Source of the DNA: an uncultured archaeon
GTDB lineage: Archaea > Aenigmatarchaeota > Aenigmatarchaeia > Aenigmatarchaeales > DAIDAN01
NCBI GenBank assembly: GCA_964545795.1
Contig: CAZJGC010000004.1
Coordinates: 1 to 56,779, forward strand
DNA: 56,779 bases
Direction: 5' to 3'
Program-made: the position numbers and the translations under genes
The notes under the pieces: generated by a model
The model's input: only the letters and a program-made list of their open reading frames with translations
Told to the model about the DNA's origin: nothing
The model's database searches: none
Shown: in pieces, positions 4,701-22,511 of the stretch
How positions within the stretch are numbered: position 1 is the stretch's first letter
How the letters are laid out: every line of letters starts with the position of its first letter

Positions 4701-7700
4701 ATGCAACCCTTAAGCCAGATGAAACAGATGTAGCAAACAATTTAATTCATATATATCTTGATGGTTCAGAACTGTTGTATAATGCAAGCACTGGTTTTAT
4801 TTCTGAAGACGGAAATGAAACTTTAGCAACTGATTCAAATGGAAATTATGATTATAACTTTATTGCTCCGAGTAGCATTGGGACGCATGAAATTAAGGTA
4901 AATCTGACAGACAGCAATGGCATTTATTCTGAGAATTATACAACATTTGAGGCAGGAGGCAATCCAAAATGGTCTGCAAATGCCACAAAATTCTCAAGCC
5001 CGCAAATATATGATGCAGGCAAAACTTATGGATTTCAGATAAATTGGACAGACCCGACAAACAATTTTGCAAACGCAACTTTTCAGTTAGGAAGACCTGA
5101 CGGAACGCTAACAAATTATACAATTGCAACAACTCCTGCTGTCCAGAATATTTCGGATACTTGGTATATCAACTTCACGCAAGCCCAGATTGGAGGGACA
5201 GGCGCTTACAATTATACCTGGTTTGGAATTAATAAGTATTCAAATCAAAACAGCACTGATACTTTAGGTTATGTAATTTCTATCAGTTCAAATCCAATAA
5301 ATATTTACTTTAGAAACGAAACAGGGGAATATAATAATAAAAACATAACCGTGGTTTATGAATCCTACACAAACACAACTGCTGTGAATGTATATGAAAA
5401 TTCCGGAGTTCTTAATATTTACAGAAATGATGAAATTGCAAATTCCGAAAACAATACAATGATTGTTCTTCCGGAAGGGTTGCATAAAATTACTGCAAAT
5501 ACAAGCGGGAATGAAAATTATACTTCAAATGCCACAACATATTATATTAGAGTGCTGCAGAAAGACGTTTTAGTAAGATTATTCATAAACGATACTGAAT
5601 CAGATGTTACAATATACACGCCAAACATAACAAATTTAACAGCAACAGTCAATACAAACACACTTGTATATATTGATGCTAATTTTTCAGGAACAAATAA
5701 ACAAATATCTTCGGGCATGGGTTCAGCGGAGAACATCACAAATATAAGCAATCTTGAGAAGGGAGTTTACAATATAACTGCTTATGTGAAAGACACGCAA
5801 AACTATACAGGCACGCTTTCACAGACTTATTATCTCACAGTAAGAGGCAGGCTTAATATAACAATAGACACTCCGCAACCAGGTTCAGTTTTCAACAGAA
5901 CATATGCATACTGGCTTAATGCAAGTGTCACAGATGACAGCGGTCATGTAGTTGAGGGCGCTGATGTTAATTGGTATGTTGATGATGTTTTTGTTAACAA
6001 TTCTCAGAACTCGCGCTGGACAGTTCCTGCCTCGCAGCCAACAGGCATTGCAACCATAAAGGTAAACGCTACAAAAGAATACTTTGACAATGTTGCGGAG
6101 GATAGCGTGCAAATAGAAATTTGGAGAACACTTACCCTTTACCTAAACATTTCTCCAGAGGAGATTTACAGAAATGATTCTTTCTCTCCGCATATAACAA
6201 CATATACCGCAAATGTCACAGATGAGAACGGCCCTGTTTCATCTGCTCAGGTTAGGTTCTGGAGAGGGACAACTTTCATAGGTCTTAATAGCACAAACTC
6301 TGATGGGACAACTCAGAAAACAGATAATGTTTTTGATTCCGAAACTCCTGGAACATATACTGTTTACGCAAACATAACCTTTTTTGCAGATGCATATTCG
6401 CATAAGATTAATGGAACTGCAAATCTTACAGTAAAAGGTTTGCTGTTTTCCGCTATAACGTCAGTATCTAACAATTCAAAATATTATAAGAATGATACTT
6501 TGAATTTGCAATCTACAACTGTTGACGAAAACGGAGCAACGCAGGTTCCGGACGCTGCAATATGGTATTTGAATGGTCTTGAAATATTGAGTGGCGAGTC
6601 TGGCGCATATCAAATACCAATAAATCAAACTCTTGGGTATAATCTGCTAAATTATACAGCAACGAAACAGTATTATGAGCCAAGTTCCCAAAACAAAACC
6701 TTGCAGATATGGAGTTTTGCGGCAGTTAATCAAACAGACCAGAATATTGTTTATCGCGGAAACTCTGCAAATTATACAGGTTTTGTTTATGATTTTATAA
6801 ACAATTCAATTATCCCGTCATATAATTGCATTTGGTATAATAATGGAACAAATATAGAAAATTCAACCACAAACAGCACAGGCCATTGCACATACAGTTT
6901 TTCAACAAGCTGTTCAAATACGCCTGGTTTATATATAATAAATGTTTCTATTTTAAACAATACGCAGTTGTGGTATGATGCAAAACAGGGATTTGAAAGT
7001 TATGCGATTAATCTTAATGTTACAGGGAATCTTTCTGTGCAGATAGATACGCCGTCAAATGGTTTGATTTATAATAAAGGAGACGGAGTGCCGCTTACTT
7101 CAACAATAAAAGATGAATGTTCAAATATTCAAACTTCAAACGTATATTGGTATGCAAACGGAAGTCAAATATCAACAGGAGAAGATACAACATGGGATAT
7201 CCCGTTTTCTCAGGAGCTTGGTTTTACAGTAATTGAGGCAAATGCTACGAAAGAATATTACAAATATGGGCGCAATTCAACTAATATTCTGATTTATGGC
7301 TGGTCAAATAATACGCGTATATATGGGGCAGGCAGTTATCCCGCAGGAAGTGTTATAAATGTTTCATGTTTGATAGAAGATGCAAATACATCTGCGCCAA
7401 TTTTGGATTATCCTGTAAATTTTTATAAGAACAACAGTTTAATTTTGACAAATCTAACAAACTCTGAAGGATATGCTTATTGGTTCTGGGACACAACTTC
7501 TGAGAATGCAGGAATTTATAATATAAGTTGCGAAATATCTGATAATTCAACAATATTTTATAATACAAGCATTGGCGGAAAAAGCGAAACAGTAGAGATA
7601 ACAAGAAATTTGACTATAGACCAGATAATAAGAGAATATGATACTGTATACAGATTCATGTATTCTCCGGGGCAGACTATGATATCTGTTCATGTCAGCG

Positions 7701-10700
7701 AGGCGGCTCTTGGAGATTCTTCCAGTTCAACAGTAAGGTTTTATAATGCTACGGATGAATTTGATTCCTGCATAACAAACTCCAGCGGTTGGTGCAGCAT
7801 AACTTATAATCCGGATGATACAATCACGCCTAACAATTATACATTTTGGATAAATGCAAGCAAGGGCGGTTTTTCAGATTCCCAGACAAACACTACCTGG
7901 GTTGTTGTAAAAGGAAAGGTGGAGGTAGTAAACATAATTAATCCGAGTCAAAATCAGAAATTCCATAGAACAGAACTTGTGGATATGAATGCTCAGGAAA
8001 TAGATGAAAATGGTGCGTATGTTTATGAAACATTAAACTGGTATAATTCAAGCCAAGAGCAAATAGCCACAGGATTGAATACGAATTGGACAATACCTGC
8101 GCATTACAAGATAGGAGAAGAGACATTAAAGGCAAATGTGTCTTCAAATTACTATGATTCAAGCGACAGCACAGTGACAATAAATATTTATGGCTGGTCA
8201 AATGTTTCATATGTTGCTCCAACAGGAATACAGCGTTATGGGGATACTCTTGCACTTAATTGTTCTGTCAGAGATGCAAACACTTCTGAGTATGTAAATA
8301 ATTATTCTGTGTCATTCTATGAAAATGACAGTTATATCGGAAGCAACTTCACTGAAGGCGGTTATGCTGTTGTTTACTGGAAACCAGGATTGGCTGATTA
8401 TTCCTTGAAATGCAATATAACAGATAATGCTACGCTTTATTATGATGCTTCAATATCTCAGGCTTCGCAAACCATTTCCGTTCATGATTTGACAAAGCCG
8501 TACATAACAAATGCAACCCTCCTTTACAGTTGGATGGAGGTTGGTCAAAACCAGACAATAAGGGCAAATGTAACAGATGATGTATCTATAGATACTGTTT
8601 GGGCAGCCATAGACATACCTCCATGGAATGAGAGCGATAATGCAACTTATGCAAATCTTACAATGAGTTTTGTTGAGGGAAATGCAACAAACGGTTTTTA
8701 CGAACTTAATTATACGCCCGAAAAGGGAGGCATATACAATGTAACAATATTTGCGAATGACACCGCAGGCAATACTAACTATACCTTTGCGGGAAATTTC
8801 TCTGTTCCGAGAAATACAACAGGATATGTAGGGCAGGTTCAATATATGTTAATAACAGATGTAAATTCAACAGGCAACAAAACAATAGAACTTAATGTGT
8901 CTCTTATAAATACAGGAAATACAAGCATGACTTCTGCTAGCATAACTTTGGTGTTGCCTTCTGGATGGAACGGCGATAAAACAAAGGAGTGCGGAACAAT
9001 ACCAAGGTTTGGCAATTGCACTTTGCATTCAAACATATCTATTCCAGCAGGAACCGTTCAGGGAAATTACAGTATAAACAGCACGGGGAAATGGACAAAT
9101 CTTGACGGCTCAACTGCTTATAATGGAAATGTTCCAAAAAATCAGACAATTATCAACATCACGGACAATCCAATATTGAATATAACTACAAATAATTTTT
9201 CAGGAACCGTGGGTCACGGCAATGAAAGCACATTGGGAATATTTTCAATACAATCTTTAGGAAACAAAGGCATATACAAAATATTTTTTAACAAAACATC
9301 AGGAAACCTTTCTGCAGATTGGGTTGAGTTTATCTCAGGTTCATATATAAATTATTTGCCTTCTCTTAACGCAAATCAGACAAAACTGATTAATGTAAGT
9401 GTCACAGTTCCTGCAACAGAAATTGGGTATTTTGCTTCCGAGTTTATTGCAAATGCCACAAATTCAAGTTGTTATCCAGAAGAAAACTGTTATAAACGAA
9501 TAAATGTTTCCGTTACTGTTCCTGAAGACAGGAGCTGGAATATTACTCCCCATTTCCAATCTGTTGTAGTTTATCAAAACACTTCAGGAAACCTGACAAA
9601 CGTGACTATATTAAATCAGGGAAACCTGAGAATAGATTATGTGATTGATAAAACAGGAAATGCTTCATCTCTAATAACATTATCAGATTCTTTTGTTTCC
9701 ATAGAAAATCAATCTTCGCATAATCTTCAAATAAATTACAGCATACCAATTAATCAGAACATAGGCAAATATTATGCCAATATTACCATAAGCAATGATT
9801 CTGCTTCTCCCGTGCAGATTAATTTCTCTCTTACGCTTTCTGTAAATGACAATATATTGCCGGTTGTTAACAACACAAACTTGAGCGCAACATCCATTGA
9901 AACCAATTACAATTACATAAATATTACTGCCGATGCTTTTGATAATTTTGCTGTTGACAGGGTATGGGCAAACCTAACTTTTCCGAATTCCAGCACATAT
10001 AAATTGTTCATGCATAACATTTCTTTGAATACATACCGCGTTAACTTTACTCCTGCAGATTCAGGATTATATAATGTATCGGTTTTTGCGAATGATACTT
10101 CCGGAAACATAAATTCAACATATGCCGGAAATTTCACGGCTATCGGAACTACCTCTGGTTTAAATGAACAGAATCCCTCATCTGTGACGGCTTCAGGAAT
10201 AACGCAGACAAACAAATATTCGTTTGTATTGAATGCTACTCTTACAAACACAGGTTCAGGAACAATGAGGTTTGTGAATTACACATTGTCTCTTCCGTCA
10301 GGGTTTGAAGCAAATGCAACATATGCGCAATGCGCAAATATGTCCTCAGGTCAGACCTGCCTGTTATATTTTGCAATTAATGTAACAGCAGATGCAGACA
10401 TAGCAGTTCCACATGTTAAGGGTAACTATACATGGCAAAATCCTGATTACAGCATAAGTTATGCAGACAATTCAACATATGTTACAGTAAGTCCAAACCC
10501 TGTTTTGAATATTTTAGAAACAAGCATTAATTCTTCGCTGGGGCATGGAAACTCAAGCACAATAGGTTCTTTCACAATAATGTCAGAAGGAAATAAGCGT
10601 CTTGAAGTCGTGGATGTAGCGTCTTCCGGTAATATGAGTTCATGGATTTCTTATATTCCTCCTTTCCCTATAAACTTTATTCTGAAAGGTTTAAACAAAA

Positions 10701-13700
10701 CAATAAATGTTAGTGCATCTGTGCCTTTAGGTCAGGAACCTGGAGTTTACGAGGCTCTTTTAATGACAAATGCAACAGGTTCTTCATGCTCGCCTGCTTC
10801 AAACTGCTGGGACAATATTACGGTAACTCTTACTGTTCCAGAGGACTGGTCATGGAATGCTACGCCAAGAAGGATACCGTCTTCAGGTTATGTGCTTGTG
10901 CCTACAGATACAACAGGAAGTTTTGTGGTTACTTTGAATAATACAGGAAATGTTGGAATAAATTTCACAATTACTCAGGCAGAAAATGGCGCAAGCCTTA
11001 TAGCATTCCCGCCACCTACGGGATATGCTGTTTTTGTTGAAAAGCAAAATGCAACCAACGTAACATTTACTTATGATTCGCATGGCGTGCTTGGAGGAAA
11101 TTATATTCTTGATATAAGAATAAGAAACTCGTCTGCCTCGCCTCAGGAAATTCATAGTTATGTTTATTTCAATGTTCAGGAAGTGCCGCCAAGCATAGAT
11201 AACATAACAGTTTCTCCCGCAACACTTGACCAGAATTATCAGAGCATGTTGATACAGGCGGATGTTGTTGATAATATTGGTGTTAGTGATGTATGGGCTA
11301 ATATAACTCTGCCTGATTCAACACATGCTATATTGCCAATGAATAATCCGGGAGGAGGAAAGACCTATAACACAACTTATATACCTGCAGAAGCCGGGAC
11401 TTACACGGTAGTCATATATGCCAATGATTCGGCATCTCCTTCCAACGAGAATCATAGTCAAGCATATTATTTTACCGCAGTTGGTTCAACAGCAGTAAGC
11501 GTTGTTCCAAATATTACAAAAGTAGAAGTTCCGGGTGTTACTCAGGATAATGGAGCAACAGTTCCATTAAACGTTAGTTTAAATAATCTTGGTCAGGGTA
11601 CAGCCTATTTTGCAAATCTTACATTTGATTTGTTTGCAAACTGGAGCGCCTCTCCTTCATTAATAAATTACAATAACATATCAAGGAGTTCAAGCGCGTC
11701 AAATGTTTCTGTAATATCAGTTCCTGCGGCTGCTCTTGGGCAGTATCTGATAAATGCTTCGGCGACATGGAACAATCCTAACAATACAATATGGACCAAT
11801 AAAACAATAATAAACATAACAGTTCTTTCAAACCCGCAAATAGACATTTCGCAGGATATAATAAACATAACAGTAAAACATGGTGAAACTAATTCAACCA
11901 ACTTTACAATAAATGCAACAGGAAATGATGCGCTTTCTTCGGTGTCAATAACATGCCAGTCAGGTTCAATATGCACAAACGATACATACTTCTCTTATTC
12001 ATTTTCGCAGTCTTCTATAGCGAATATAAATGCAGGCGCAAATTCAAATGTTACTGTAACAGTGAGTGCCGCACTTGGTACTCCGCCAGGGGTTTATGTT
12101 GGAATAATAAATGCTTCAATGAATGCATCAGGAAATATGATATCAGATTTGGTTGAGATAGGAGTTAATGTTCCAAGCAACAGCACATGGAGCATGTCGC
12201 AGTCATGGAGCGGCATTAAAACAGTTGGAACCGGGGCTTCAGGCACTATAGGAACTTTGACAATAACCAACTATGGAAACCATCCATTGCTTTTCAATAC
12301 CTCAATAACAGGAAACGGAACTTCATATATGAATCTAACCCAGCCAAACATAACAGTGGCAGGGCAGTCTTCAGGAACGCTTACTCTGAACTATTACAGC
12401 CCAATGAACTTGTCTGACAATGCTTCAGAGATTTCAAGAATTTATTCAATAAACATATCTGTTGAAAACAGTTCTGCAACTCCTGCTCAACTCTATGCTT
12501 CCGCAATTTTGAAGGTTATGAAGTTTAATGTAAGGATATTGTTTCCAACAAGCGAGATTAATGTCACATCTGGAGATAATTTTTCAGTAAATGCCAATGC
12601 AACATACGGAGAAAGTATAATTTCAGACAACATAACATGGACAGTGAAATTCAATTCTACGGAGTGTCCTGTATTCAGCAGCGTAACAAAGACTGACTCA
12701 TCTAATAATTATTTTTGGCAGATAAACTGCACGGCTCCGCAGTTGCCTGATGCAAATAATTACACTCTCTATCTTTATGGAAATTATACTGATTCATCTA
12801 AAGGCATATACGGAGCAATTACAAATGATTTCAAGAGAAACATAATTGTATATCCTGATGTTTCAAAAGCCAAAATCCAAAGCATTGTTGCGCCTTCAGT
12901 AACTCCGGGAAACAATGTTACTATAAATGCAACTCTTACTGATAATGTTGCTGTAGTAGAGGCAATAGTGCAGGTTACATATCCAAACAATATTACTGAG
13001 AACTATACGCTTTCAAACACTTCATGGAATTTGTCTGCTGCTTCATGGGTTTACAACTTTACCAACACTTCTCAAGTTGGTGACTATGATATCCGCATAT
13101 ATGCAAGGGATAAAGAAGGCAACTGGAATAGTTCAGACAGTTGGTTTGAAGTTTATAGAAACAATGTAACGTTTACAGGCGTGTCAGAAACTGCAACAGA
13201 CAAAATTGAGTTTGATTTTTATCGTCCGGGAAAGGTCAAACCTCTTTATCTGGTTCATGCTGTTTCAAGCAATACAACAACAGGCAATTATACTGCGCAT
13301 GTTCATAACAGGACTTATGACATTAAAATCAGCCAGTATGGAAATTCAGTGAAACTTATATCAGTTCCACTCACAGAATCAGTAAGCAATCCAATAAAAT
13401 TGAAAGATGTTTCTGTAACAAAGGTAGGTTCCAACATCTTAAGAGTATTGGCTGTTTCAAATAATCTTTCCTTTAGTGTTGCAAATGTAACATTAAACTA
13501 TTCAGGAAAGACAGGATTTACAGAAAGCGCATTGCGCGTGTTTAAGTGCGGTAATTGGTCTTATTCATCGGATTCATGCCCAACTACATGGAGTTTAGTT
13601 GGCGGAACTCTGAATGGCGATAATACAATAACAGTTAATACAACAAGTTTTTCCGCATTTGCTCTTTCAAAGAACAGTTTTATTTGCGGTGATAATTATT

Positions 13701-15727
13701 GCGATTCCGCAAACGGGGAGACAAGCGCCAATTGTCCGACAGATGGGTGTTCAACCAGCACAGCAGGTGGAACTACAGGAGGAGGCGGAACAGGGACAGG
13801 CAGTGGAACTGGTTCTGGTTCAGGAGGCGGCGGAGCAGCGCCTGTGCAGCAACAGCCTCAGATAAATCTTACCAAATTAAAACAGCCGGATATGGAAGTG
13901 TCATCCAACAATCTTGATGTAACCTTGCATCCAGGTGAAACAATAATAACATCTATTGACATTAAGAACAATCTTGACAGACCTGTAACAGCAGAACTTG
14001 CGGTTGGAGGAAGAATATGGGAATTTGTTCAGTTTGAAAACACTTCAATATTAATGGAGCCAAAATCATTGAATAATGTTAAAATAAAATTCAGCGCGCC
14101 GGAAACAATTTTGCCGGGAATTTATACAGGCGATATATTTATAAAATCAGGAAACAAAACCCAGAGGATTTCAACAACAATGAAGGTTGTAGAAAAGGCA
14201 GAACCTCTTATGGATGTGAAAATAGAAACTCTTACAAAAGAAGTTAATCCTGGAGATTTTCTAAGGTCTCAGGTTACTTTGTATAATATGGGCATGACAA
14301 AGAAAATTGATGTAACTTTGATTTACACTATTAGAGATGTTTATACAAGCAAAATTGCTGTAAAGGATTCTGAAACATTGGCAATAGAAAATTCTCTGTC
14401 ATTTGTTAGAACTATTCACATTCCGAAATCAGTAAAACCAGGAAAGTATGCGATTGAGGTTGTTGCCTATTATGATAATAAAACCGCAACGGCTGTAAGC
14501 AGTTTTGATGTTGTGGAGATGCCTGTTATTGTTCTTTTCTTTATATCAGTTCTTACAAGCTGGCAGCTTTATATATTCATAGCAGGCGTTATTGTAACTT
14601 TGCTTATAAGAAGAATGATTGAAAGCGTGACAACAGGAAGAAAGAAGAAGTCAAAGTATATATTCCCTGTCAATTTCAAGAAGTTGCCAAGAAAAGGAAT
14701 AAAAGTAGGAAAGATAGCAGAAACAGATATTGATGCATATCTTGACCAGAATAAGTTAACAACGCACTTATTGCTTGCAGGAGGCACAGGTTCAGGAAAA
14801 TCTGTATCAGCAATGGTAATTGCGGAAGAGTGTTTAAAGAAGGGCATTCCTGTAATAGTGTTTGACCCGACTGCGCAGTGGACAGGGTTTATAAAGCCAT
14901 GCAGAGATGAAAGAATGCTCTCGCTTTATCCAAAATTCGGAATGAAGCGCGAGGAGGCAAGGGCATTTAAAGGAACAATTATAGATGTAACAGACCCAAA
15001 CATATCTGTGGATATTACCAAGTATTTGAACAAGGGAGAAATAACTGTATTCAATCTTAACAAGATGTTTGCTTCAGACCTTGATTCATTTGTAAGGAAG
15101 ACAATTGACAATATTTTCTCTGTGCAGTGGAAAGAGGCTCATGAATTAAAGCTTTTGATAGTTTATGATGAGGTTCACAGACTTTTGCCAAAGTATGGAG
15201 GCAAGGGAGGATATGTTGCGCTTGAGCGCGGCGCAAGAGAGTTCAGAAAGTGGGGCATAGGATTGATAATGATATCTCAGGTATTGTTGGATTTCAGAGG
15301 CGCTGTTCGTGCGGTTATTGCATCAGAAGGTCAACTTAGAACCAAGTATGAAGGAGATATAAAGAGGGTAAGAACCAAGTATGGTTCTGAATATGCTGCT
15401 ACTGTTCCAAAACTTCAGGTAGGCACAGTGCTTTTCCAGAATCCTGAATATAATGATGGAAAACCATGGTTCATTTCATTCAGACCTCTGCTGCATGATA
15501 CTTCAAGAATTCCTGAAGAGGAGTTGCAGCAGTATAAGTTGTTCAATAAGAAGATTGAAGAAATGGAGAAGGTGATAAAGGAATTGAAGTCAAAGAAGAT
15601 AGATACATATGATTTGGAGATTGAACTTAAGATTGCGAAAGAGAAAGTAAAGCAGGGCCAGATGAGAATGGCGCAGACTTATATAGAGTCAATAGAAGCA
15701 AGAATGAAGAAAATGACAAAAAAGTAA
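1751..15727 (+). CDS. Giant (4658 aa) cell-surface glycoprotein with C-terminal TM segment and cytoplasmic HerA/FtsK-like (DUF87-type) P-loop ATPase
   Basis: N-terminal signal peptide; Gly-rich repeats; many Ig-like beta repeats with dense N-x-S/T sequons; hydrophobic segment ~14522-14608; Walker A GGTGSGKS; Walker B LIVYDEVH; REFRKWGIGLIMISQ; terminal coiled coil. Confidence 0.88.
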   Translation: MNRNITLLLAFFALIALQVSMLSGTSSANNIDILNVSIQPSKVNPGDTMIVSANISDVYGVSSVYADMGGIETIPLYLNSGTIYKGMWQNTWLVHDTESRNYTTNISVISRSGLSSYALAEWSDPPCSISCDSTVGNTCIISSPKEVEGGCTIDDTVIGVQNLEIQNGGSIYNTTNTEGFIIDLTGNITIKNGGNITGNVNITASNVFIESGGKLSSDYVGYGSGQGPGAGVSDNWRATGGGGYGGAGGRGYNTNGGSSYGSMTQPLDFGSGGGTDTEGSPVYGGSGGGRIIINLTGTLALNGTLSSSGENGYVGTYGSGGGSGGSVYIITNKVEGTGIIKANGGAGGNDADGLFDGGGGAGGRIALYASNFSFSGTIEAKGNTGNDGAQSGYGGTIYINATTYFEPTSNFLANSTDSARLGTIVFNYPATGNSDSVLLYSNNPVINPIPWFSDSMNIGCSDGSECTVYRVKTNLTGTHNYASLNITKNASLHASVSSLALTQNLTVSLGGLLDFSSDANITADNIAITDGGNISYSSNLDINAPSIYVSEGSSIIASAKLANLTINASVIDVYGTINANANITAENVTIYSTGKLSSDYVGYSGGTPQNNNAQGPGAGSYGYLGGGGAGYGGNGGNGYQGAGGSSYGSLTQPLDFGSGGGSSWYSAGGSGGGRIIINLTGTLTINGNISSSGENGNIVAYGAGGGSGGSVYVIADIIEGTGTIRANGGAGGNDADGLFDGGGGAGGRIALYASNFSFSGTIEAKGNTGNDGAQSGYGGTIYINATGNFNISSGTILANSTDSARLGSANITYGSTGWEYCDAYNSVFEPSPAFYFVPYSATTPYRCVKLVLTNFTLRKDDNSTSDTFKLNESIYLSFRVREFNGTDYWNVTDGSWNISANETLNPNSSTFHISGGYWKSIGSFSKNMGGYYFVAENITGESPAGMKTRVNDIILQYSVKSIITSLELNSSVVRPSDVMRVSGHATLKPDETDVANNLIHIYLDGSELLYNASTGFISEDGNETLATDSNGNYDYNFIAPSSIGTHEIKVNLTDSNGIYSENYTTFEAGGNPKWSANATKFSSPQIYDAGKTYGFQINWTDPTNNFANATFQLGRPDGTLTNYTIATTPAVQNISDTWYINFTQAQIGGTGAYNYTWFGINKYSNQNSTDTLGYVISISSNPINIYFRNETGEYNNKNITVVYESYTNTTAVNVYENSGVLNIYRNDEIANSENNTMIVLPEGLHKITANTSGNENYTSNATTYYIRVLQKDVLVRLFINDTESDVTIYTPNITNLTATVNTNTLVYIDANFSGTNKQISSGMGSAENITNISNLEKGVYNITAYVKDTQNYTGTLSQTYYLTVRGRLNITIDTPQPGSVFNRTYAYWLNASVTDDSGHVVEGADVNWYVDDVFVNNSQNSRWTVPASQPTGIATIKVNATKEYFDNVAEDSVQIEIWRTLTLYLNISPEEIYRNDSFSPHITTYTANVTDENGPVSSAQVRFWRGTTFIGLNSTNSDGTTQKTDNVFDSETPGTYTVYANITFFADAYSHKINGTANLTVKGLLFSAITSVSNNSKYYKNDTLNLQSTTVDENGATQVPDAAIWYLNGLEILSGESGAYQIPINQTLGYNLLNYTATKQYYEPSSQNKTLQIWSFAAVNQTDQNIVYRGNSANYTGFVYDFINNSIIPSYNCIWYNNGTNIENSTTNSTGHCTYSFSTSCSNTPGLYIINVSILNNTQLWYDAKQGFESYAINLNVTGNLSVQIDTPSNGLIYNKGDGVPLTSTIKDECSNIQTSNVYWYANGSQISTGEDTTWDIPFSQELGFTVIEANATKEYYKYGRNSTNILIYGWSNNTRIYGAGSYPAGSVINVSCLIEDANTSAPILDYPVNFYKNNSLILTNLTNSEGYAYWFWDTTSENAGIYNISCEISDNSTIFYNTSIGGKSETVEITRNLTIDQIIREYDTVYRFMYSPGQTMISVHVSEAALGDSSSSTVRFYNATDEFDSCITNSSGWCSITYNPDDTITPNNYTFWINASKGGFSDSQTNTTWVVVKGKVEVVNIINPSQNQKFHRTELVDMNAQEIDENGAYVYETLNWYNSSQEQIATGLNTNWTIPAHYKIGEETLKANVSSNYYDSSDSTVTINIYGWSNVSYVAPTGIQRYGDTLALNCSVRDANTSEYVNNYSVSFYENDSYIGSNFTEGGYAVVYWKPGLADYSLKCNITDNATLYYDASISQASQTISVHDLTKPYITNATLLYSWMEVGQNQTIRANVTDDVSIDTVWAAIDIPPWNESDNATYANLTMSFVEGNATNGFYELNYTPEKGGIYNVTIFANDTAGNTNYTFAGNFSVPRNTTGYVGQVQYMLITDVNSTGNKTIELNVSLINTGNTSMTSASITLVLPSGWNGDKTKECGTIPRFGNCTLHSNISIPAGTVQGNYSINSTGKWTNLDGSTAYNGNVPKNQTIINITDNPILNITTNNFSGTVGHGNESTLGIFSIQSLGNKGIYKIFFNKTSGNLSADWVEFISGSYINYLPSLNANQTKLINVSVTVPATEIGYFASEFIANATNSSCYPEENCYKRINVSVTVPEDRSWNITPHFQSVVVYQNTSGNLTNVTILNQGNLRIDYVIDKTGNASSLITLSDSFVSIENQSSHNLQINYSIPINQNIGKYYANITISNDSASPVQINFSLTLSVNDNILPVVNNTNLSATSIETNYNYINITADAFDNFAVDRVWANLTFPNSSTYKLFMHNISLNTYRVNFTPADSGLYNVSVFANDTSGNINSTYAGNFTAIGTTSGLNEQNPSSVTASGITQTNKYSFVLNATLTNTGSGTMRFVNYTLSLPSGFEANATYAQCANMSSGQTCLLYFAINVTADADIAVPHVKGNYTWQNPDYSISYADNSTYVTVSPNPVLNILETSINSSLGHGNSSTIGSFTIMSEGNKRLEVVDVASSGNMSSWISYIPPFPINFILKGLNKTINVSASVPLGQEPGVYEALLMTNATGSSCSPASNCWDNITVTLTVPEDWSWNATPRRIPSSGYVLVPTDTTGSFVVTLNNTGNVGINFTITQAENGASLIAFPPPTGYAVFVEKQNATNVTFTYDSHGVLGGNYILDIRIRNSSASPQEIHSYVYFNVQEVPPSIDNITVSPATLDQNYQSMLIQADVVDNIGVSDVWANITLPDSTHAILPMNNPGGGKTYNTTYIPAEAGTYTVVIYANDSASPSNENHSQAYYFTAVGSTAVSVVPNITKVEVPGVTQDNGATVPLNVSLNNLGQGTAYFANLTFDLFANWSASPSLINYNNISRSSSASNVSVISVPAAALGQYLINASATWNNPNNTIWTNKTIINITVLSNPQIDISQDIINITVKHGETNSTNFTINATGNDALSSVSITCQSGSICTNDTYFSYSFSQSSIANINAGANSNVTVTVSAALGTPPGVYVGIINASMNASGNMISDLVEIGVNVPSNSTWSMSQSWSGIKTVGTGASGTIGTLTITNYGNHPLLFNTSITGNGTSYMNLTQPNITVAGQSSGTLTLNYYSPMNLSDNASEISRIYSINISVENSSATPAQLYASAILKVMKFNVRILFPTSEINVTSGDNFSVNANATYGESIISDNITWTVKFNSTECPVFSSVTKTDSSNNYFWQINCTAPQLPDANNYTLYLYGNYTDSSKGIYGAITNDFKRNIIVYPDVSKAKIQSIVAPSVTPGNNVTINATLTDNVAVVEAIVQVTYPNNITENYTLSNTSWNLSAASWVYNFTNTSQVGDYDIRIYARDKEGNWNSSDSWFEVYRNNVTFTGVSETATDKIEFDFYRPGKVKPLYLVHAVSSNTTTGNYTAHVHNRTYDIKISQYGNSVKLISVPLTESVSNPIKLKDVSVTKVGSNILRVLAVSNNLSFSVANVTLNYSGKTGFTESALRVFKCGNWSYSSDSCPTTWSLVGGTLNGDNTITVNTTSFSAFALSKNSFICGDNYCDSANGETSANCPTDGCSTSTAGGTTGGGGTGTGSGTGSGSGGGGAAPVQQQPQINLTKLKQPDMEVSSNNLDVTLHPGETIITSIDIKNNLDRPVTAELAVGGRIWEFVQFENTSILMEPKSLNNVKIKFSAPETILPGIYTGDIFIKSGNKTQRISTTMKVVEKAEPLMDVKIETLTKEVNPGDFLRSQVTLYNMGMTKKIDVTLIYTIRDVYTSKIAVKDSETLAIENSLSFVRTIHIPKSVKPGKYAIEVVAYYDNKTATAVSSFDVVEMPVIVLFFISVLTSWQLYIFIAGVIVTLLIRRMIESVTTGRKKKSKYIFPVNFKKLPRKGIKVGKIAETDIDAYLDQNKLTTHLLLAGGTGSGKSVSAMVIAEECLKKGIPVIVFDPTAQWTGFIKPCRDERMLSLYPKFGMKREEARAFKGTIIDVTDPNISVDITKYLNKGEITVFNLNKMFASDLDSFVRKTIDNIFSVQWKEAHELKLLIVYDEVHRLLPKYGGKGGYVALERGAREFRKWGIGLIMISQVLLDFRGAVRAVIASEGQLRTKYEGDIKRVRTKYGSEYAATVPKLQVGTVLFQNPEYNDGKPWFISFRPLLHDTSRIPEEELQQYKLFNKKIEEMEKVIKELKSKKIDTYDLEIELKIAKEKVKQGQMRMAQTYIESIEARMKKMTKK
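2783..4083 (+). repeat. Exact 149-bp intragenic duplication (2783-2931 and 3935-4083) inside two Gly-rich repeat units
   Basis: Identical DNA encoding GAGGNDADGLFDGGGGAGGRIALYASNFSFSGTIEAKGNTGNDGAQSGYG, offset 1152 bp. Confidence 0.9.
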
Positions 15728-15779
15728 GATGCAGGCGATAAAGTAATATTTTATAAACACGTAAACAGATATTTTTATT

Positions 15780-17588
15780 ATGTTTTCAGGCAAGAAGAAA
15801 CGGACAAAGAAGGAGAATGCAGGTAAAAAACCTTCTAAAAAAAAGAAAGAGGAAGACATAAAGAATTTTATATCAATTCTTAAGAAACAGTATAAAGATG
15901 GATTGATTTCTGAAAAGACCTTTAAAGAGACTCTTAAAAAGAATGAAGAGGCGCTTGAGCAGTTAAAGAGCAGCGCAGTTCCGGATGAAGGCAAAACTTC
16001 GGAGAGCAAGGCAGAAGAACGCAAAACAGTTGGCGAAATACTTAAGGAAGAAGGAGTGATACCCGAGGAAGAGGTTAGAGAAACAGGAAAAGTTAAAGTT
16101 GAGCATGTAATTGATATTGAAAAAGTTGTAATGAATGTGGAAAAACTTAGCGCAGAAGTTGAGGCTTTGCGGGATATTAAATTTCAGACTGATGAAAGAA
16201 TAAAGGAGATTTCTGAAAGCATTGGCGAAATGAGGTCTTTAATTTTTCAGAGAGACGGCGCAATAAAAGAAATGCAAATGAAAATTGAAAAATTGAATGA
16301 TGCTGTTTCTGATATAAAACCTGAAAAAATAACTGCTGAATTCAAGAAGCAGGAGAAAGAGATGCTGGAAACTAATGCAAAGACAGAGAAACTTGAGAGT
16401 ATGGTAAAGGATGTTGCCCGTCAATTGAAGTCTGTGCAAAGAGTTCTTGACAATATAAAAAGTATAAAAAATCTCATATCTATTTCCAGGGAAATAGACA
16501 GAAAGATTTCAAAAATAGAAAAACTTAAGGCAGATGTTGAGAGAGATGCCGAAAAAACAGAGAAGTTTTATCTTGATTTGGAGGACAGAATTGAGGAATT
16601 TATCCGCCTAAAAGCGTCTGTTCAGAAACTTGATGAACTTACAAAAGAACTTGTAAAAACTGTTGATGAAGAGAAAATAAAAATGGCTAATTTTGTTGAT
16701 AAGGAAGAACTTCAAAATGCTTTGGATAATGCTCTCAAGCCCCCGAGTTCAGATGATATGCTTGAAGAAAAAATTAAGAAGAAAAAGGAGATTGAGACTC
16801 TGCTGAAAAATATAGAAAACCAGTATAGAAGGGGAATTATAAGCAAGGAGAGTTTTGATGAGATATGCAGAAAAAATAATCTTCTGGTTAAAATGCTTGA
16901 TAAAGAAATAGAAAGAGCCAAGAGCAAAAAAACTCCTGAAAATATGATTGAGTGGATAGAACAGCTTGAATCTGATATAAAGTCTATGCATATGAAACTT
17001 TCAATACTTGATGAGGTTTTGAAAAGCTATAGGGGTGAAAGCAAAGAGGGAGGGGAAAATGAAGTTGGTGTAATAACCAGGGAAGATGAGAAGCGCATAA
17101 AACAAATGCTTGAAACAAAATTATTGAATAACAACAGTCAGCCTGAACAGAGACATGATAACGAGTATATGCCTAAAATTGAGGAAGATAGAATAACTAA
17201 AGAAAGCAATATTAAAAATGATTCAGACAAGTCTATTAATGATGAAATTAATGATATAAAAATGTTTTTAAGCGATTTGGAAGACAAATATAATATGGGG
17301 CTTATCTCAGAGCGCACTTTTAATGAAGCCAAGGAAAAGAATTTAATGAAGTTGTTGGAGTTAGAAAAATTAAAGTCTTTGGCAGAAAATAAAGAAAATT
17401 ATAATAGTTTGAGAGCAAGACTTAACGATATAAGGCAAATAAGAAGGAATAATATAGAAAATATAATACAGAGGCCAAATTCAGAATCTGAGTTAAGAGA
17501 AGAATTTGAAACATTTAGAAGAGAGACAGAGGAAAATATTAATATAATTGTTGATTCAATAAAGAAAATATTATCAAAAATTGAGTAA
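15780..17588 (+). CDS. Cytoplasmic coiled-coil protein with three SHOCT/CdvA-like L..xY..G.IS...F.E motifs
   Basis: K/E-rich heptad pattern, no signal peptide or TM; motifs QYKDGLISEKTF, QYRRGIISKESF, KYNMGLISERTF. Confidence 0.75.
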   Translation: MFSGKKKRTKKENAGKKPSKKKKEEDIKNFISILKKQYKDGLISEKTFKETLKKNEEALEQLKSSAVPDEGKTSESKAEERKTVGEILKEEGVIPEEEVRETGKVKVEHVIDIEKVVMNVEKLSAEVEALRDIKFQTDERIKEISESIGEMRSLIFQRDGAIKEMQMKIEKLNDAVSDIKPEKITAEFKKQEKEMLETNAKTEKLESMVKDVARQLKSVQRVLDNIKSIKNLISISREIDRKISKIEKLKADVERDAEKTEKFYLDLEDRIEEFIRLKASVQKLDELTKELVKTVDEEKIKMANFVDKEELQNALDNALKPPSSDDMLEEKIKKKKEIETLLKNIENQYRRGIISKESFDEICRKNNLLVKMLDKEIERAKSKKTPENMIEWIEQLESDIKSMHMKLSILDEVLKSYRGESKEGGENEVGVITREDEKRIKQMLETKLLNNNSQPEQRHDNEYMPKIEEDRITKESNIKNDSDKSINDEINDIKMFLSDLEDKYNMGLISERTFNEAKEKNLMKLLELEKLKSLAENKENYNSLRARLNDIRQIRRNNIENIIQRPNSESELREEFETFRRETEENINIIVDSIKKILSKIE

Positions 17589-17683: not shown

Positions 17684-20600
17684 ATGAGAAAAATTCTGCT
17701 GTTTTCAGCCATAATTATATTTTTTTTCGCTGCAAGTCAAATAGCGGAGGCTGGCTGGTGGAATGAATCATGGCATTTCAGAATTCCGGTAAATATATCT
17801 TTTCCTTCCGGCGCTGAAAATGCAAGCGTGAATGTTTCTGTTAATTTTACATCTGAAATTGAAAGTCTTGGGATATCGGGAACTTTTGACAAAAATTCAA
17901 TAAGAGTTGTTGAAAACAATAATGATATTCCTTCAGATTTTTTAAACACAAGCATTGATGCAGGAAATGTGAGTTGGATTGTAAACGGAACTACTCCTGC
18001 AAATACAAACCGCACTTTTTATATTTATTTTGATATTATTGAAAACGGTGCAAAGAGCGCAGGCAAGGTTATTTCTGAATCATGCAACAGTTATGGAAAT
18101 AATACATGTTATTGGAGGAGCGACTATTCGCAAGATAATATGAATGTATGGTCAAATCAGTCCTCGTCTCCTGGTATTGGATATGAGTGGAACAGGACTT
18201 GGGCGCAGATGATTGAAGTAAACTGGAAATGGAGTGCTGAGACAAATTATGATTTTGCTTATCTGTATATTGACGGTTCGCAGTATTCTAAAAAAACAGG
18301 AACCGGTTCAGAAACAATTCAGGTGTCGGCATCCAGAATATCGGCAAGATTTACGTCAGACGGGTCAAACCATTATCCTATTTATGGGTCAAGCGATTCC
18401 TACGGAATCTATGGAACTGCTGTTGATGTAATAAAGTTTTATCCAACAGCCGGTTATACAACGCCGGCTTTTAATGTTTTCAAGGCAACGGCAGAAAAGC
18501 AATATCCTCCCACTTTAAACAATGCTTCTGTTTCAGGAGACGGCTGGGGAGAAACTTTTAATTACAGCGTAATTGTGAATGATACTGAAAATGATTTGGT
18601 TTCTGTCACGTTGTATACAAATGAAAACGGAGTATGGAACAGGCATGAAACCAGGACAACTCATGGCGGCATGTTGAACTGGACGCTTTCTCCTTTCTCC
18701 TGCTCTGATATAGGAACAAGATACTACAAGTTTGAATACAATGATTCATATCATGCTCCTGTAAATACAAGCAATTATTCGCAGACCATCGGGAAAGATG
18801 ATATTGAAATAAATTATTATTCAGGAAACGCAAGCGTGAACAGAGAATCCGGAAAAATACCTTTTGGAGTGAAAATGAGGGATATAGATAATGGTGCTTA
18901 TGTTTCTTCTGAGCAGGTTAGTTTTTGGTCATACTATTCTGGCGCATGGAATAACATAGGAGCAAATAATACAGCGTCTGACGGCACGGTGATTTATAAT
19001 TACAACCCAAACTGTTCTGTTTCGGCAGGAACCCATTTATGGAAGGCGAATTATTCAGGCGCATGTTATAAGGCAAATGGGTCCAGCAATTTCGTTTTTA
19101 CTGTTGTTGGGCAGTTAAAGGAATGGCTTTTGCAACCTCCAAGAATAGAATATGATTTAGGGGATAGTATATTAATCCGCGCAAACCTTACAGATGAGTG
19201 TTCAAATCCTGTAACAGGAGCGTCTGCAAACTTTTCTTTAAACGGAACAGCATATCAGGCTGTTGAAGAAGGTTCTGGACTGTATAATTATTCATGGGAT
19301 TCTTATGGCAAGGAAACAGGAAACTATACAATAACCATGAATTCTTCCGCTGTTTTTTATAATTTTAATTCCACTTCATGGCTTAATTGGTTTAAACTTG
19401 TGGCAGGACCTCCTCATATAAATGTGAGTTTGAATGTAAGCCAGTCAGAGCAGGGGACGATTGTGCATATAAATGCGACAGCAGAAGATATGAGCGGTCT
19501 TGGAATAAACACTGTTTGGGTAAACATTACATATCCAAATTCAACTGTTATCAAATATAACATGACAAATATTTCAGATGTTTGGCATTTTGATTTGAAT
19601 GATACTGCGCAAAGAGGTCAATATAATGTAACAGTTTATGCAACAGATAACGCAGGGAAAACAGGAAACAAAACAAGTGTTCTTAAAATTTATGCAAAAA
19701 TAATAAATGATATATTGACAGTTACCGAGAATAACATTGTTACATTTAAGATACGTATCCATGACTTAAACAACGCTTCTCTTTCAAACGCTTCGGTTAA
19801 TTTGCGGTTTGATGACTCAAGTGGCTGGAATGTGTTTAATCAGTTATACAATACAGGTTCAAATGGAAGAGTTGAACCTGTTCCGCAAAAAGATTCTTTA
19901 ATATCAGGGTTATATAATTGGACTGCAAGTGTAACATATAATGATACAATAACAGGCATAGAAAACTTTAATGTCACATCAGGCTATTTTTCTGTTACAG
20001 CGAGCAGTGGCTCAACTGGCGGCGGTATAACTCCTTTATTCTTTCTGTATCTTGTTGCACCGTCCGAGGTTGCAACAGGCAATAATTTGGAGATAACTGC
20101 GGTTACTGCGAATAATACAATGAATATTGATGTTGATTCCATAAAGGCAAGCCTTTATGATTCTGCAGGAAACCTTATTGTAGATAATGTGAACATGACA
20201 AAACAAAGCAATGGAGTTTATTATAAGAATTATACGACTTCAAGTTCTTCAAATCAGGGCACTTGGAAATGGATTGTTTATGCAACTGAAGGCTCATATG
20301 AATTAATAAAAACAGAATATACAAGGGTTGTTGGAGGACCTTTTGATGTAAGAAATATAACTGTAACTGATAATACAGTGCCTACTCTTGGGATTTCTGT
20401 TATAGTTGAAAATAAGGGAAATGCGAATCAGGATGTTACAATGGAATGGAATATTACAAGAACAGACACAAATGAACAGTTGGCTGCAGGTTCTGATACT
20501 ATTCTAGTTAATGCAAATTCTGAGAAGGTTTATTCTATAACTCCAAGCGTAAGTTATGTAGGTGAGGTAAAGGTTTTGTTTATTGCGCATTATTCTGGGA

Positions 20601-21679
20601 CTGAGAGAGCGGGTGCATATTCAATTTTCACAACTGAAAAGGAGTCTGCCCAGCAACCTCCGCCTGCCGCAGGAGGAGCCGCCGGAGGCGGTGGCGGAGG
20701 AGGAGGAGGCGCGGTATCACCGCCTGCAAATGTTTCAAATGTTTCGGCTGCGCATGGCATAGAAATAGCAAAATATCCTGAAGAAATAGAATTGGAAAAA
20801 GGTTGGGCAAAATTCATAACAATTTTAGTGAACAATACGGGTTCCGGAGTTTTGCATAATGTTTATATAAAGTTTCTTGATATACCTCAGGAATGGTATG
20901 ATATTCAGACGCCGGTCCTGAAAACACTGAATGGGAGCAAGCAATTTCTTGTGAAATTTTTGGTTCCGAAAAATGTGAAATCTGGAAATTATAAAGCAAG
21001 GCTTATGGCATTGTCTTCGGAGTCTTCTGATGAAAAGGAGATTATAGTAAGGGTTTATACTTCAAGGTATGAACTCATAAAGTATCAGATTGAAACATTG
21101 AAAGACAGAGTAAAATATATTGAAACTCTGGCGGACAAATTAGAACAGGAAGGAGTAGACATGACTGCAATAAAGAGCAGAATTTCTGATATAAGAGCCC
21201 AGATAACTACTGCTGAGAAATATCTTGAAAATAAAAGGTATGATGATGCTTCAAGGTTTGCCAAATCCATAAAAAAGGCAATAGATGCGTTGCAGAAGGA
21301 TTTGGAGGAAAAATATGAGCAAAGAGCCAAACAGCCAAAATTGCCTTTAACATTAATTTTGATAATATTGGCAGCGGTTGTTTCAATTGTATGTGTCGCA
21401 TATTTGGTTGTAAGAATAAGGAGAAGAGAAACTGATGTTGCTTATAGAAATGCGGCTTTGGAGAGAATTCATGATTTAAAGAAAATGGTGGTTGGAAAAC
21501 TGACAGCACCTAAAATAAAAGGAGACATGGAGAGAACAAGAAAGATGCTAAGGCTTTTGAATAAAGAGTATGAAGAAGGTATTATAACAAAAGAGACTTA
21601 TGAGGAATTGAAGAGAATAAATGAAGAAAGGCTTTTGAATTTATCAAAGAAAATGAAGGATTATAATATAGAGGAGTAG
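17684..21679 (+). CDS. Large surface protein: DUF2341-like N-terminus, CUB-like and Ig-like domains, coiled coil, TM, SHOCT-like tail
   Basis: Signal peptide; WWNESWHFRIPVNI; E..YDF.Y...FTSDGS; Gly linker; TM LTLILIILAAVVSIVCVAYLVV; tail EYEEGIITKETYEEL. Confidence 0.8.
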   Translation: MRKILLFSAIIIFFFAASQIAEAGWWNESWHFRIPVNISFPSGAENASVNVSVNFTSEIESLGISGTFDKNSIRVVENNNDIPSDFLNTSIDAGNVSWIVNGTTPANTNRTFYIYFDIIENGAKSAGKVISESCNSYGNNTCYWRSDYSQDNMNVWSNQSSSPGIGYEWNRTWAQMIEVNWKWSAETNYDFAYLYIDGSQYSKKTGTGSETIQVSASRISARFTSDGSNHYPIYGSSDSYGIYGTAVDVIKFYPTAGYTTPAFNVFKATAEKQYPPTLNNASVSGDGWGETFNYSVIVNDTENDLVSVTLYTNENGVWNRHETRTTHGGMLNWTLSPFSCSDIGTRYYKFEYNDSYHAPVNTSNYSQTIGKDDIEINYYSGNASVNRESGKIPFGVKMRDIDNGAYVSSEQVSFWSYYSGAWNNIGANNTASDGTVIYNYNPNCSVSAGTHLWKANYSGACYKANGSSNFVFTVVGQLKEWLLQPPRIEYDLGDSILIRANLTDECSNPVTGASANFSLNGTAYQAVEEGSGLYNYSWDSYGKETGNYTITMNSSAVFYNFNSTSWLNWFKLVAGPPHINVSLNVSQSEQGTIVHINATAEDMSGLGINTVWVNITYPNSTVIKYNMTNISDVWHFDLNDTAQRGQYNVTVYATDNAGKTGNKTSVLKIYAKIINDILTVTENNIVTFKIRIHDLNNASLSNASVNLRFDDSSGWNVFNQLYNTGSNGRVEPVPQKDSLISGLYNWTASVTYNDTITGIENFNVTSGYFSVTASSGSTGGGITPLFFLYLVAPSEVATGNNLEITAVTANNTMNIDVDSIKASLYDSAGNLIVDNVNMTKQSNGVYYKNYTTSSSSNQGTWKWIVYATEGSYELIKTEYTRVVGGPFDVRNITVTDNTVPTLGISVIVENKGNANQDVTMEWNITRTDTNEQLAAGSDTILVNANSEKVYSITPSVSYVGEVKVLFIAHYSGTERAGAYSIFTTEKESAQQPPPAAGGAAGGGGGGGGGAVSPPANVSNVSAAHGIEIAKYPEEIELEKGWAKFITILVNNTGSGVLHNVYIKFLDIPQEWYDIQTPVLKTLNGSKQFLVKFLVPKNVKSGNYKARLMALSSESSDEKEIIVRVYTSRYELIKYQIETLKDRVKYIETLADKLEQEGVDMTAIKSRISDIRAQITTAEKYLENKRYDDASRFAKSIKKAIDALQKDLEEKYEQRAKQPKLPLTLILIILAAVVSIVCVAYLVVRIRRRETDVAYRNAALERIHDLKKMVVGKLTAPKIKGDMERTRKMLRLLNKEYEEGIITKETYEELKRINEERLLNLSKKMKDYNIEE

Positions 21680-21725: not shown

Positions 21726-22511
21726 ATGAGGAGAGTAATAGGAATTGTAAGTGGAAAAGGCGGCGTTGGCAAAACAACTGTTACCATAAATCTTGGAGCT
21801 GCTCTTGCCGCGATTGGCAAAAAAGTAACTATTATAGATTGCAATATTACGACATCTCACATGGGAGCTTATCTTGGCATGTATTATTGTCCTGTTACAA
21901 TAAATCAGGTATTGAGAGGCGAAGCTGATATAGATGAGATAATATATGAACATCATAGCGGAATGAAAGTTATTCCTGCTTCTCTTAAAATTGAAGACAT
22001 GAAAGGAATTGATTTTATAAAATTAAAGGAAGTTATAAATAAACTCAGCGATGATGGAATAGTGTTGCTTGATTCTTCTCCCGGGCTTGGAAGGGAAGCA
22101 TCTATAACAATACAGGCAAGCAATGAAATATTGTATGTTTCAACGCTTTACATTCCTTCAATTATAGATGTTCTGAAATGCAAGGAAATATCAAAGGAGT
22201 TTGGAGCAAAACATATAGGTCTTGTTCTTAATATGGTAACGGGAGAAAGTTATGAACTTGCAAAGAGGGATGCAGAAGAGTTAACAGGTTTGGACGTGGT
22301 TTCTGTAATCCCTTTTGACAAAAATATACAGAGAAGTCTTGCTGCAAATGCAATAACAGTCCAAAGATTCCCTTCAAGCAAAAGTTCTGTTGCATTCAAA
22401 AAACTTGCGGCTTTCATAGTTAATGAGGAGTATAAGGAAACATTTATTGAGAAAATAAGAAACATGTTTGTTTTCGGTCCAAGTTCGTTTATTAAAAAAT
22501 TTAAAAGGTGA
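21726..22511 (+). CDS. minD: MinD/ParA family ATPase
   Basis: Deviant Walker A SGKGGVGKTT, IIDCN, LLDSSPG, C-terminal amphipathic tail. Confidence 0.88.
   Translation: MRRVIGIVSGKGGVGKTTVTINLGAALAAIGKKVTIIDCNITTSHMGAYLGMYYCPVTINQVLRGEADIDEIIYEHHSGMKVIPASLKIEDMKGIDFIKLKEVINKLSDDGIVLLDSSPGLGREASITIQASNEILYVSTLYIPSIIDVLKCKEISKEFGAKHIGLVLNMVTGESYELAKRDAEELTGLDVVSVIPFDKNIQRSLAANAITVQRFPSSKSSVAFKKLAAFIVNEEYKETFIEKIRNMFVFGPSSFIKKFKR

Follow-up and report, generated by a model that had tools for sequence, protein, structure and literature searches.

Here we describe gene A, a giant gene in a 56,779-nucleotide stretch of DNA from an uncultured archaeon of the Aenigmatarchaeota (GenBank assembly GCA_964545795.1, contig CAZJGC010000004.1; the whole stretch is referred to as the window). 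Gene A encodes an ATPase of the HerA clade that is joined through a transmembrane segment to a giant ectodomain; this fusion is genuine and is conserved across hundreds of genomes. The conserved core of the protein is its last ~620 amino acids (aa), and the N-terminal ectodomain is an add-on that can be swapped. This architecture has been published before: the protein is best explained as belonging to the SPEARE type, with whose named members it is compared here by description. To judge from sequence and gene order, the functional unit would best be explained as the last ~620 aa together with the partner proteins B, C and often D, encoded in a cassette that gene A heads.

The frame of gene A is open for 4,658 codons without interruption, and its product is ordered as signal peptide, ectodomain of ~4,250 aa, one hydrophobic segment, compact P-loop ATPase and helical tail of ~70 aa (Table 1). 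A first-pass annotation made from the letters alone had proposed this in-frame fusion, and the open frame bears it out. Hydropathy analysis finds strongly hydrophobic sequence only in the N-terminal signal-like segment and in residues ~4247-4293, where the motif MPVIVLFF begins at residue 4257 (window position 14519). A basic stretch (RR..RKKKSK) follows the hydrophobic segment, and the end of the segment is separated from the first ATPase strand by ~25 residues. The sequence is consistent with a type-I topology.

The junction was checked in reads and in other genomes, as the first-pass annotation had suggested. A Logan contig from sequencing run X1 (15,555 bases, depth 88.6) spans window positions 13000-16500 with 0 differences; the run possibly comes from the source sample, which makes this check independent in the assembler and not in the sample. 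Run X2 yields identical fragments, none of them over 14521-14754, and the junction is confirmed in reads by the X1 contig only. In the source genome (768 kb, 29 contigs, 98.7% complete) the module is present once. It ends proteins across the genomes of relatives as well, so the fusion is not an assembly error. The chance that an assembly or sequencing artefact has joined two genes, the refutation that the first-pass annotation had foreseen, is negligible: nothing in favour of it was found, hundreds of independent assemblies show this fusion too, and since it is conserved across genomes, the artefact is refuted for practical purposes.

Among 41 related genomes (source included), 23 have a match to the module, and 12 contain a total of 18 full-length matches (E <= 1e-100), all located C-terminally in open frames that range from 526 to 10,206 aa. 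When 1.84 billion cluster representatives were searched, 1,133 proteins matched at E <= 1e-3, of which 363 reach E <= 1e-30; the best 150 of these 363 clusters are represented by proteins of 356-7,878 aa that carry the module at their C-terminus or close to it. With a profile of the core, matches at E <= 1e-20 were obtained for 104 of the 201 genomes sampled from the phylum and for 52 of the 92 of high quality, some of the weaker matches spanning only the beta-sandwich part. In addition, a pattern scan of species-representative genomes gave 584 stretches confirmed by tblastn, labelled mostly as Candidatus Aenigmatarchaeota and some as other DPANN.

The longest frames ending in the module are 14,526 aa (G122:C3:21543-23399, with one TAG inside the matched part), 14,236 aa (G168:C1:56741-58597) and 13,519 aa (G095:C2:55897-57765). 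All three exceed the 9,409-aa protein that PMC10266531 terms the largest in cultivated archaea.

The conserved core can be delimited by comparison with short homologues. Proteins of ~725 aa (721-733) consist of a signal peptide, a short Cys-/Pro-rich stretch and then everything from window-protein residue ~4031 on, and thus retain the two membrane-proximal beta-sandwich domains, the transmembrane segment, the ATPase and the tail. In a 727-aa homologue this Cys-rich, Pro-rich stretch is comparable to the Cys-rich knot and linker of the window protein. The ATPase is present in 344 of 348 proteins collected. Of these 344, the size analysis used the 143 whose N-terminus resembles a signal peptide, treating them as complete, and excluded the remaining 201 as probably truncated. 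The complete proteins range from 627 to 7,665 aa (median 2,691; 31 under 1,000 aa and 73 of at least 2,600 aa), with a median of 64 residues after the ATPase. In a FastTree phylogeny of the 143 ATPase domains, three size classes switch at least 22 times, compared with a mean of 59.9 (range 52-65) in 100 shuffles of the labels. There are thus fewer switches than expected by chance and still at least 22, suggesting that size is inherited, yet has been gained or lost many times around an unchanged core. The 24-row clade of the window protein (local support 98) includes 15 proteins of 721-733 aa and 9 of 4,328-6,606 aa; with ~725-aa versions present in this very clade, the core can do without the giant ectodomain.

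An alignment of the last 622 aa of the window protein with 56 short homologues (alignment A1, 57 sequences) contains 37 invariant columns, of which 35 are within or just ahead of the ATPase core. The invariant residues include G, G, G and K of Walker A, E of Walker B and the H-R that follows it, the E..R-E.R and R..ER.R residues and the S-Q pair. Column by column, the ATPase is highly conserved and the helical tail moderately so; conservation is low in the sandwiches, which nevertheless align in all short homologues, and in the membrane segment, which partly keeps W, W.TY and P positions. An AlphaFold2 model of the core built on this alignment (predicted local distance difference test, pLDDT, 92.1) contains two beta-sandwich domains (model residues 12-218), helices (223-264), a RecA-like core (281-541) and three helices (553-621). 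Foldseek relates the membrane-proximal sandwiches to RbmA, CEP192 SPD-2 and the tandem sandwiches of WxLIP.

These motifs, which go far beyond a chance resemblance, and the RecA-like core make the ATPase a member of the FtsK-HerA superfamily. Searched with the last 441 aa, Pfam gives DUF87/HerA-central at 56.2 bits (cut-off 23.2, E 6.8e-15), the match covering just profile positions 1-61 of 220, and FtsK_SpoIIIE at 24.2 bits (cut-off 24), limited to 38 residues around Walker A (residues 100-138, equivalent to profile positions 20-57 of 221). The HerA_C, T4SS-DNA_transf and TrwB models match weakly. NCBIfam gives partial matches to CedD and HerA models well under their cut-offs (HerA_Thermprot, 42.3 bits against 800; helicase_HerA, 22.7 against 970), and to TraC-F-type (24.3 bits against 567). 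The closest solved relative by sequence is the HerA of Sulfolobus solfataricus (4d2i; family profile E 7.3e-12), whose RKFGVGL..SQ aligns with the REFRKWG....SQ block of gene A. When the A1 profile is run against PDB sequences, the top eight matches are all HerA-type, with DotL marginal (5.5e-3).

The structural comparison gives the same order. The ATPase domain modelled by itself (299 aa, pLDDT 92.5, predicted template modelling score 0.92) was compared with 48,161 PDB representatives using VIA-align, and the top matches, with Z from 15 to 25.7, are all from the FtsK-HerA superfamily. HerA 4d2i ranks first (Z 25.7; 261 residues aligned, root-mean-square deviation 3.3), ahead of the DndH C-domain (Z 23.4), VirB4 4ag5 (Z 22.5), defence and repair HerAs (Z 19-21.6), TrwB (Z 18.6), FtsK (Z 16.8) and EccC (Z 16.6). 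Foldseek and the sequence profile agree with HerA as the nearest relative. The domain belongs to the HerA clade and not clearly to VirB4, in agreement with the HerA/FtsK-type identity given by the first-pass annotation, which had also recognised Walker A, Walker B and RKWG....SQ after the hydrophobic segment; all three were located and are invariant at their key positions in the 57 sequences. With its catalytic residues invariant, the ATPase is predicted to be catalytically intact.

Features common to HerA 4d2i and the ATPase of gene A are the RecA-like core, a lead-in strand that precedes Walker A, the Walker B motif and an R..RK.G...SQ block. Unlike the 500-aa chain of 4d2i, the fused domain has 299 aa and lacks the HAS barrel and the large helical insert, as the first-pass annotation had noted: no HAS barrel match (PF09378) is found by Pfam in the gene A protein, and the ~25-residue gap ahead of the first strand leaves little room for one. 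It also differs from HerA in being tethered to the membrane and in lacking a NurA/Mre11/Rad50 neighbourhood. The window open reading frames (ORFs) scanned with Pfam gave no NurA, Mre11, Rad50 or type IV secretion system (T4SS) family, and the NurA gene of the genome is on contig C1, outside the window. A canonical HerA (503 aa, with HAS barrel) is encoded on contig C25. The presence of a separate canonical HerA and NurA elsewhere in the genome indicates that the fused ATPase is a paralogue and not the repair HerA.

A third DUF87-type ATPase is encoded on contig C29 (G000:C29, L027 1018-2280; 420 aa, with HerA_C and Zot matches), adjoining a DEAD/ResIII helicase and a Laminin_G_3 protein (L027 2354-2851). 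For gene A itself, an inovirus pI/Zot-like identity was considered and ruled out, the gene lying among chromosomal housekeeping genes and being conserved across the phylum.

Gene A is the first gene of a conserved multi-gene cassette, a point missed in the first-pass annotation together with the published SPEARE architecture and the dispensability of the ectodomain. A B-like ORF directly follows the gene A homologue in 12 of 12 loci of relatives, often overlapping its stop codon; a protein with a C-type tail is encoded in 10 of the 12, and gene D follows C in 4. Among 80 public loci searched with tblastn (E <= 1e-5, low-complexity filtering off), a match to B lies downstream on the same strand in 73 of the 74 that have at least 1,200 bases of downstream flank. 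Protein C consists of a signal peptide, a variable Ig-like ectodomain and a conserved part of ~300 aa at its end (beta-sandwich, helix, transmembrane segment and cytoplasmic SHOCT-like tail), and one relative has a short version of 333 aa. Protein B belongs to no Pfam family, with only a sub-threshold SHOCT match, and in the Atlas it falls in Aenigmatarchaeota hypothetical clusters only. Searches of the accessible parts of the literature found no account of the B/C/D cassette, nor of the Aenigmatarchaeota proteins beyond one sentence of PMC6642349, whose SI Fig. S17/Table S3 may list homologues.

Table 1. Features of gene A and the cassette that it heads, in window coordinates
Feature	Position	Strand	Basis
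Gene A, 4,658-aa type-I membrane protein (predicted topology)	1751..15727	+	open frame; C-terminal module conserved in relatives
Signal-peptide-like N-terminus, residues 1-28	1751..1834	+	hydropathy peak at residues 4-25, sequence; cleavage site predicted
Variable ectodomain: Gly-rich repeat blocks, arrays of Ig-like/NEW3/filamin-like beta-sandwiches	1835..13672	+	Pfam; not conserved in short homologues
Cys-rich knot and Gly/Thr/Ser-rich linker ahead of the conserved core	13673..13858	+	sequence
Two conserved membrane-proximal beta-sandwich domains, residues 4048-4254	13892..14512	+	AlphaFold strands 12-218, pLDDT >90
Hydrophobic membrane segment with helical continuation, then basic stretch (predicted cytoplasmic side)	14519..14650	+	hydropathy; model helices 223-232, 235-264
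HerA-clade RecA-like P-loop ATPase, residues 4317-4588	14699..15514	+	Pfam DUF87; PDB profile matches; structure Z
Walker A GGTGSGKS, residues 4344-4351	14780..14803	+	G, G, G, K invariant in 57 sequences
Walker B VYDEVH (residues 4471-4476, 15161-15178) and next invariant Arg	15161..15181	+	E, H, R invariant; D nearly so
REFRKWG....SQ block, candidate arginine finger and sensor residues (RKWG....SQ, residues 4499-4510, 15245-15280)	15236..15280	+	R4496, E4497, R4499, S4509, Q4510 invariant
C-terminal three-helix/coiled-coil tail and stop codon	15515..15727	+	model helices 553-621; conserved DTYD.ELE...ETYIES positions
Gene B, 602-aa predicted cytoplasmic coiled-coil protein with SHOCT-like motifs	15780..17588	+	directly downstream of gene A
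Gene C, 1,331-aa second type-I membrane protein (predicted topology)	17684..21679	+	sequence; conserved C-terminal part
Gene D, MinD/ParA-type P-loop ATPase	21726..22511	+	Pfam CbiA 1.3e-18, ParA 3.7e-16

Protein B has three SHOCT-like motifs, to which a motif in the cytoplasmic tail of protein C is similar, and a Lys-rich N-terminus that the L002 homologue lacks. Matches of B to ATP synthase subunit d (PDB, E 9e-5) and to LmuB (PADLOC) were rejected as coiled-coil bias. A second type of cassette in relatives (L018 4164-5408, L019, L022, L023, L024) has ORFs of 145 and 160 aa between B and a C-like protein of ~1,960 aa, the 160-aa ORF showing a weak Peptidase_M50B-like match (E 2.9e-4), and no MinD/ParA gene is found within the stretch examined. 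A homologue of Peptidase_A24 type IV prepilin peptidase is encoded at window positions 52757-53590, ~30 kb from the cassette, and in four relatives such a gene lies 3-5 kb from short-form cassettes (L013 15316-15999, L015 2750-3568, L016 2365-3180, L021 11381-12196).

SPEARE proteins were described in Nanohaloarchaeota as proteins of up to 8,553 aa, mostly extracytoplasmic, with a transmembrane segment near the C-terminus, the intracellular part being the most conserved region and containing 'type III restriction enzyme' domains (Hamm et al. 2019, PMC6642349). Similar intracellular sequences were reported there in Woesearchaeota, Aenigmarchaeota, Micrarchaeota and Altiarchaeales. Reva et al. 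(2023, PMC10266531) later interpreted the intracellular part as a cytosolic 'VirB4/TraG-like ATPase' with a coiled coil behind it, noted a gene for a VirB4/TraG ATPase downstream, and proposed a T4SS-like delivery of effectors. The gene A protein resembles these proteins in its signal peptide, giant adhesin-type ectodomain, single transmembrane segment towards the C-terminus, conserved cytoplasmic P-loop domain and terminal coiled coil. It also resembles them in the spurious type III restriction (ResIII) match of the P-loop domain, to which SPEARE owes its 'RE' and which is sub-threshold here, and in belonging to a family that has, in DPANN hosts, giant members alongside very short ones of 655-717 aa. 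The lineage is different, the relatives here being labelled Aenigmatarchaeota; the NCBI labels of the giant homologues cover several DPANN groups, with one Nanohaloarchaea-labelled match at 55% identity. A further difference from the account in PMC10266531 is that the ATPase is nearest to HerA and not to VirB4/TraG. Pfam matches in the ectodomain are of adhesion type (NEW3 as NPCBM_assoc, 2.4e-15; Big_7 and Filamin, both weak), and several homologues carry PF13385 or PF02210; laminin-G domains are present in some of the giant homologues.

Membrane-anchored motors are found elsewhere in the superfamily. VirB4 and the coupling proteins (TrwB/VirD4, TcpA, DotL) are related to the gene A ATPase, and the coupling proteins are likewise membrane-anchored ring ATPases at a trans-envelope channel, with an anchor that is N-terminal and without an ectodomain. 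Unlike these, the gene A protein has no all-alpha domain and no VirB4 N-domain, and no T4SS partner families were found among the window ORFs scanned. FtsK/SpoIIIE and the type VII proteins EssC/EccC are also membrane-anchored ring motors, which pump DNA or proteins; they are more distant, and differ from gene A with its single ATPase domain and single membrane segment.

We favour, with a probability of about 0.5, a reading in which the ATPase forms a ring under the membrane and does work on a polymer where the ectodomains establish a contact site; B and C would be the scaffold, and D would see to placement. The signal peptide would send the ~4,250 aa of adhesin-like beta-sandwich and repeat domains out of the cell, leaving the two conserved sandwiches on the membrane, the hydrophobic segment across it, and the ATPase and helical tail in the cytoplasm. 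The giant N-terminal part would serve as an exchangeable module for recognition of hosts or surfaces. A ring of ATPase domains, as formed by other HerA/VirB4/FtsK-type ATPases, may then use ATP to move DNA or protein across the symbiont membrane at the cell-cell contact, B and C acting as scaffold or stator and D positioning the complex. That the ectodomains would be bundled around a pore, or moved by the ring, as the first-pass annotation had proposed, we infer from the usual behaviour of HerA-clade ATPases. A complex prediction of three ATPase copies with ATP (score 0.00, mark 0.42) speaks neither for nor against a ring.

Several points weigh against this reading. One transmembrane segment per protomer gives six helices per hexamer, fewer than in the DNA-conducting assemblies of FtsK and the coupling proteins. 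The oligomer, the pore and the substrate are all predicted. Gene D is present in part of the cassettes only (the 4 of 12 loci given above), and the E-values of the matches to B may be inflated because the sequence is coiled coil and filtering was off. The ectodomain gave no match to a laminin-G, protease or toxin-like domain at E <= 0.01, laminin-G and protease domains being listed among SPEARE features, and the gene downstream encodes a coiled-coil protein and not the VirB4/TraG ATPase of PMC10266531. Homology to the named SPEARE proteins, moreover, is deduced from the architecture, the ResIII/DUF87 signature, the NCBI labels and the statement in PMC6642349.

The alternative that survives best is an anchoring or assembly hub, in which the ATPase ring, together with B and the MinD/ParA protein, would cluster, position, tension or recycle the giant surface fibres and so organise an adhesive coat from the cytoplasm, with no transport of DNA or protein across the membrane. 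This is possible, though clearly less probable than a polymer-moving ring. It would suit the single membrane segment per protomer and the long coiled-coil partners and MinD/ParA-type ATPase of the cassette, MinD/ParA proteins being known to position large complexes, and defence HerAs solved in complexes with partners (SIR2/HerA, HerA-DUF4297) are among the structural matches. Working ring translocases typically have catalytic and arginine residues that are strictly conserved here, which argues against a hub, as do the short forms, which have almost no fibre to organise and retain the full ATPase, and the scarcity of D, found in just 4 of the 12 cassettes examined. Rather doubtful, and a little below the hub in our estimate, is a previously undefined trans-membrane machine of DPANN symbionts, made up of the core (the two sandwiches, the transmembrane segment, the HAS-less HerA ATPase and the helical tail) with B, C and the MinD/ParA protein, in which a six-protomer cytoplasmic ring would bundle the ectodomains as a fibre or conduit and pump host-derived DNA or another polymer in or out, with the ectodomain swapped rapidly to track hosts.

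A T4SS-like effector injector, with a VirB4/TraG-type motor and the ectodomain as a 'straw' into the host, was proposed for the nanohaloarchaeal giants (PMC10266531). VirB4 is the third-best structural match and the TraC, TraD and T4SS-DNA_transf models match weakly, but HerA outscores VirB4 by both sequence and structure. PF03135 (the VirB4 N-domain) and PF12846 (AAA_10) have no match anywhere in the 98.7%-complete genome, no other T4SS family appears among the window ORFs scanned, and the gene downstream is for a coiled-coil protein and not for a second VirB4-like ATPase. An injector is therefore improbable for gene A.

Far less likely still is the original SPEARE proposal of an intracellular restriction or DNA-degrading domain, in which a type III restriction-like module would cut DNA after its import (PMC6642349). 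The Pfam ResIII match that recalls it (E 1.3e-4, in the C-terminal part of gene A) reaches 22.4 bits and lies below the cut-off of 22.5; since ResIII models the helicase/ATPase subunit, similarity of the P-loops explains the match. Neither Pfam nor NCBIfam gave a nuclease family for the C-terminal part, the HerA-like core and the helices account for the whole cytoplasmic part, and the same conclusion was reached for SPEARE in PMC10266531.

A membrane-tethered anti-phage HerA, the ring of which would be the scaffold of a defence system, is just as hard to credit. Weak matches to PADLOC HerA models (best 4.7e-14; mad8 3.5e-10) and the defence HerAs among the structural neighbours recall such systems, but the cassette encodes neither Sir2 nor DUF4297 nor any other effector partner, and the HerA matches are partial and well under the NCBIfam cut-offs. 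The giant adhesin-like ectodomain is without counterpart in the PADLOC HerA models searched, and we know of no defence HerA elsewhere that carries one.

DPANN archaea depend on other cells, by a route of uptake of host material that is not known to us. A motor ATPase joined to the largest surface protein of the cell would be the most obvious candidate for an uptake machine, and about half of the genomes sampled from the phylum carry the module. The gene A protein does not reveal a new kind of system, the SPEARE type being already known. It sharpens the published picture with a HerA-like motor, invariant catalytic residues, a core of ~620 aa and defined partner genes, and the ~725-aa versions provide an experimentally tractable entry point, being of a size that suits expression, purification and imaging.

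The rest of the window encodes archaeal housekeeping functions, including PolB, EF-1 alpha, CCA enzyme, deoxyhypusine synthase and lipid genes. A 494-aa ORF on the minus strand (91-1575), divergent from gene A, matches no Pfam family at E <= 0.01. A 674-aa protein (25660-27684) has a full-length Beta_propel match (PF09826, E 2.6e-168), and two small Laminin_G_3 (concanavalin-like lectin) proteins (35788-36798 and 41838-42737) may, like the one at L027 2354-2851, be further surface or host-binding proteins.

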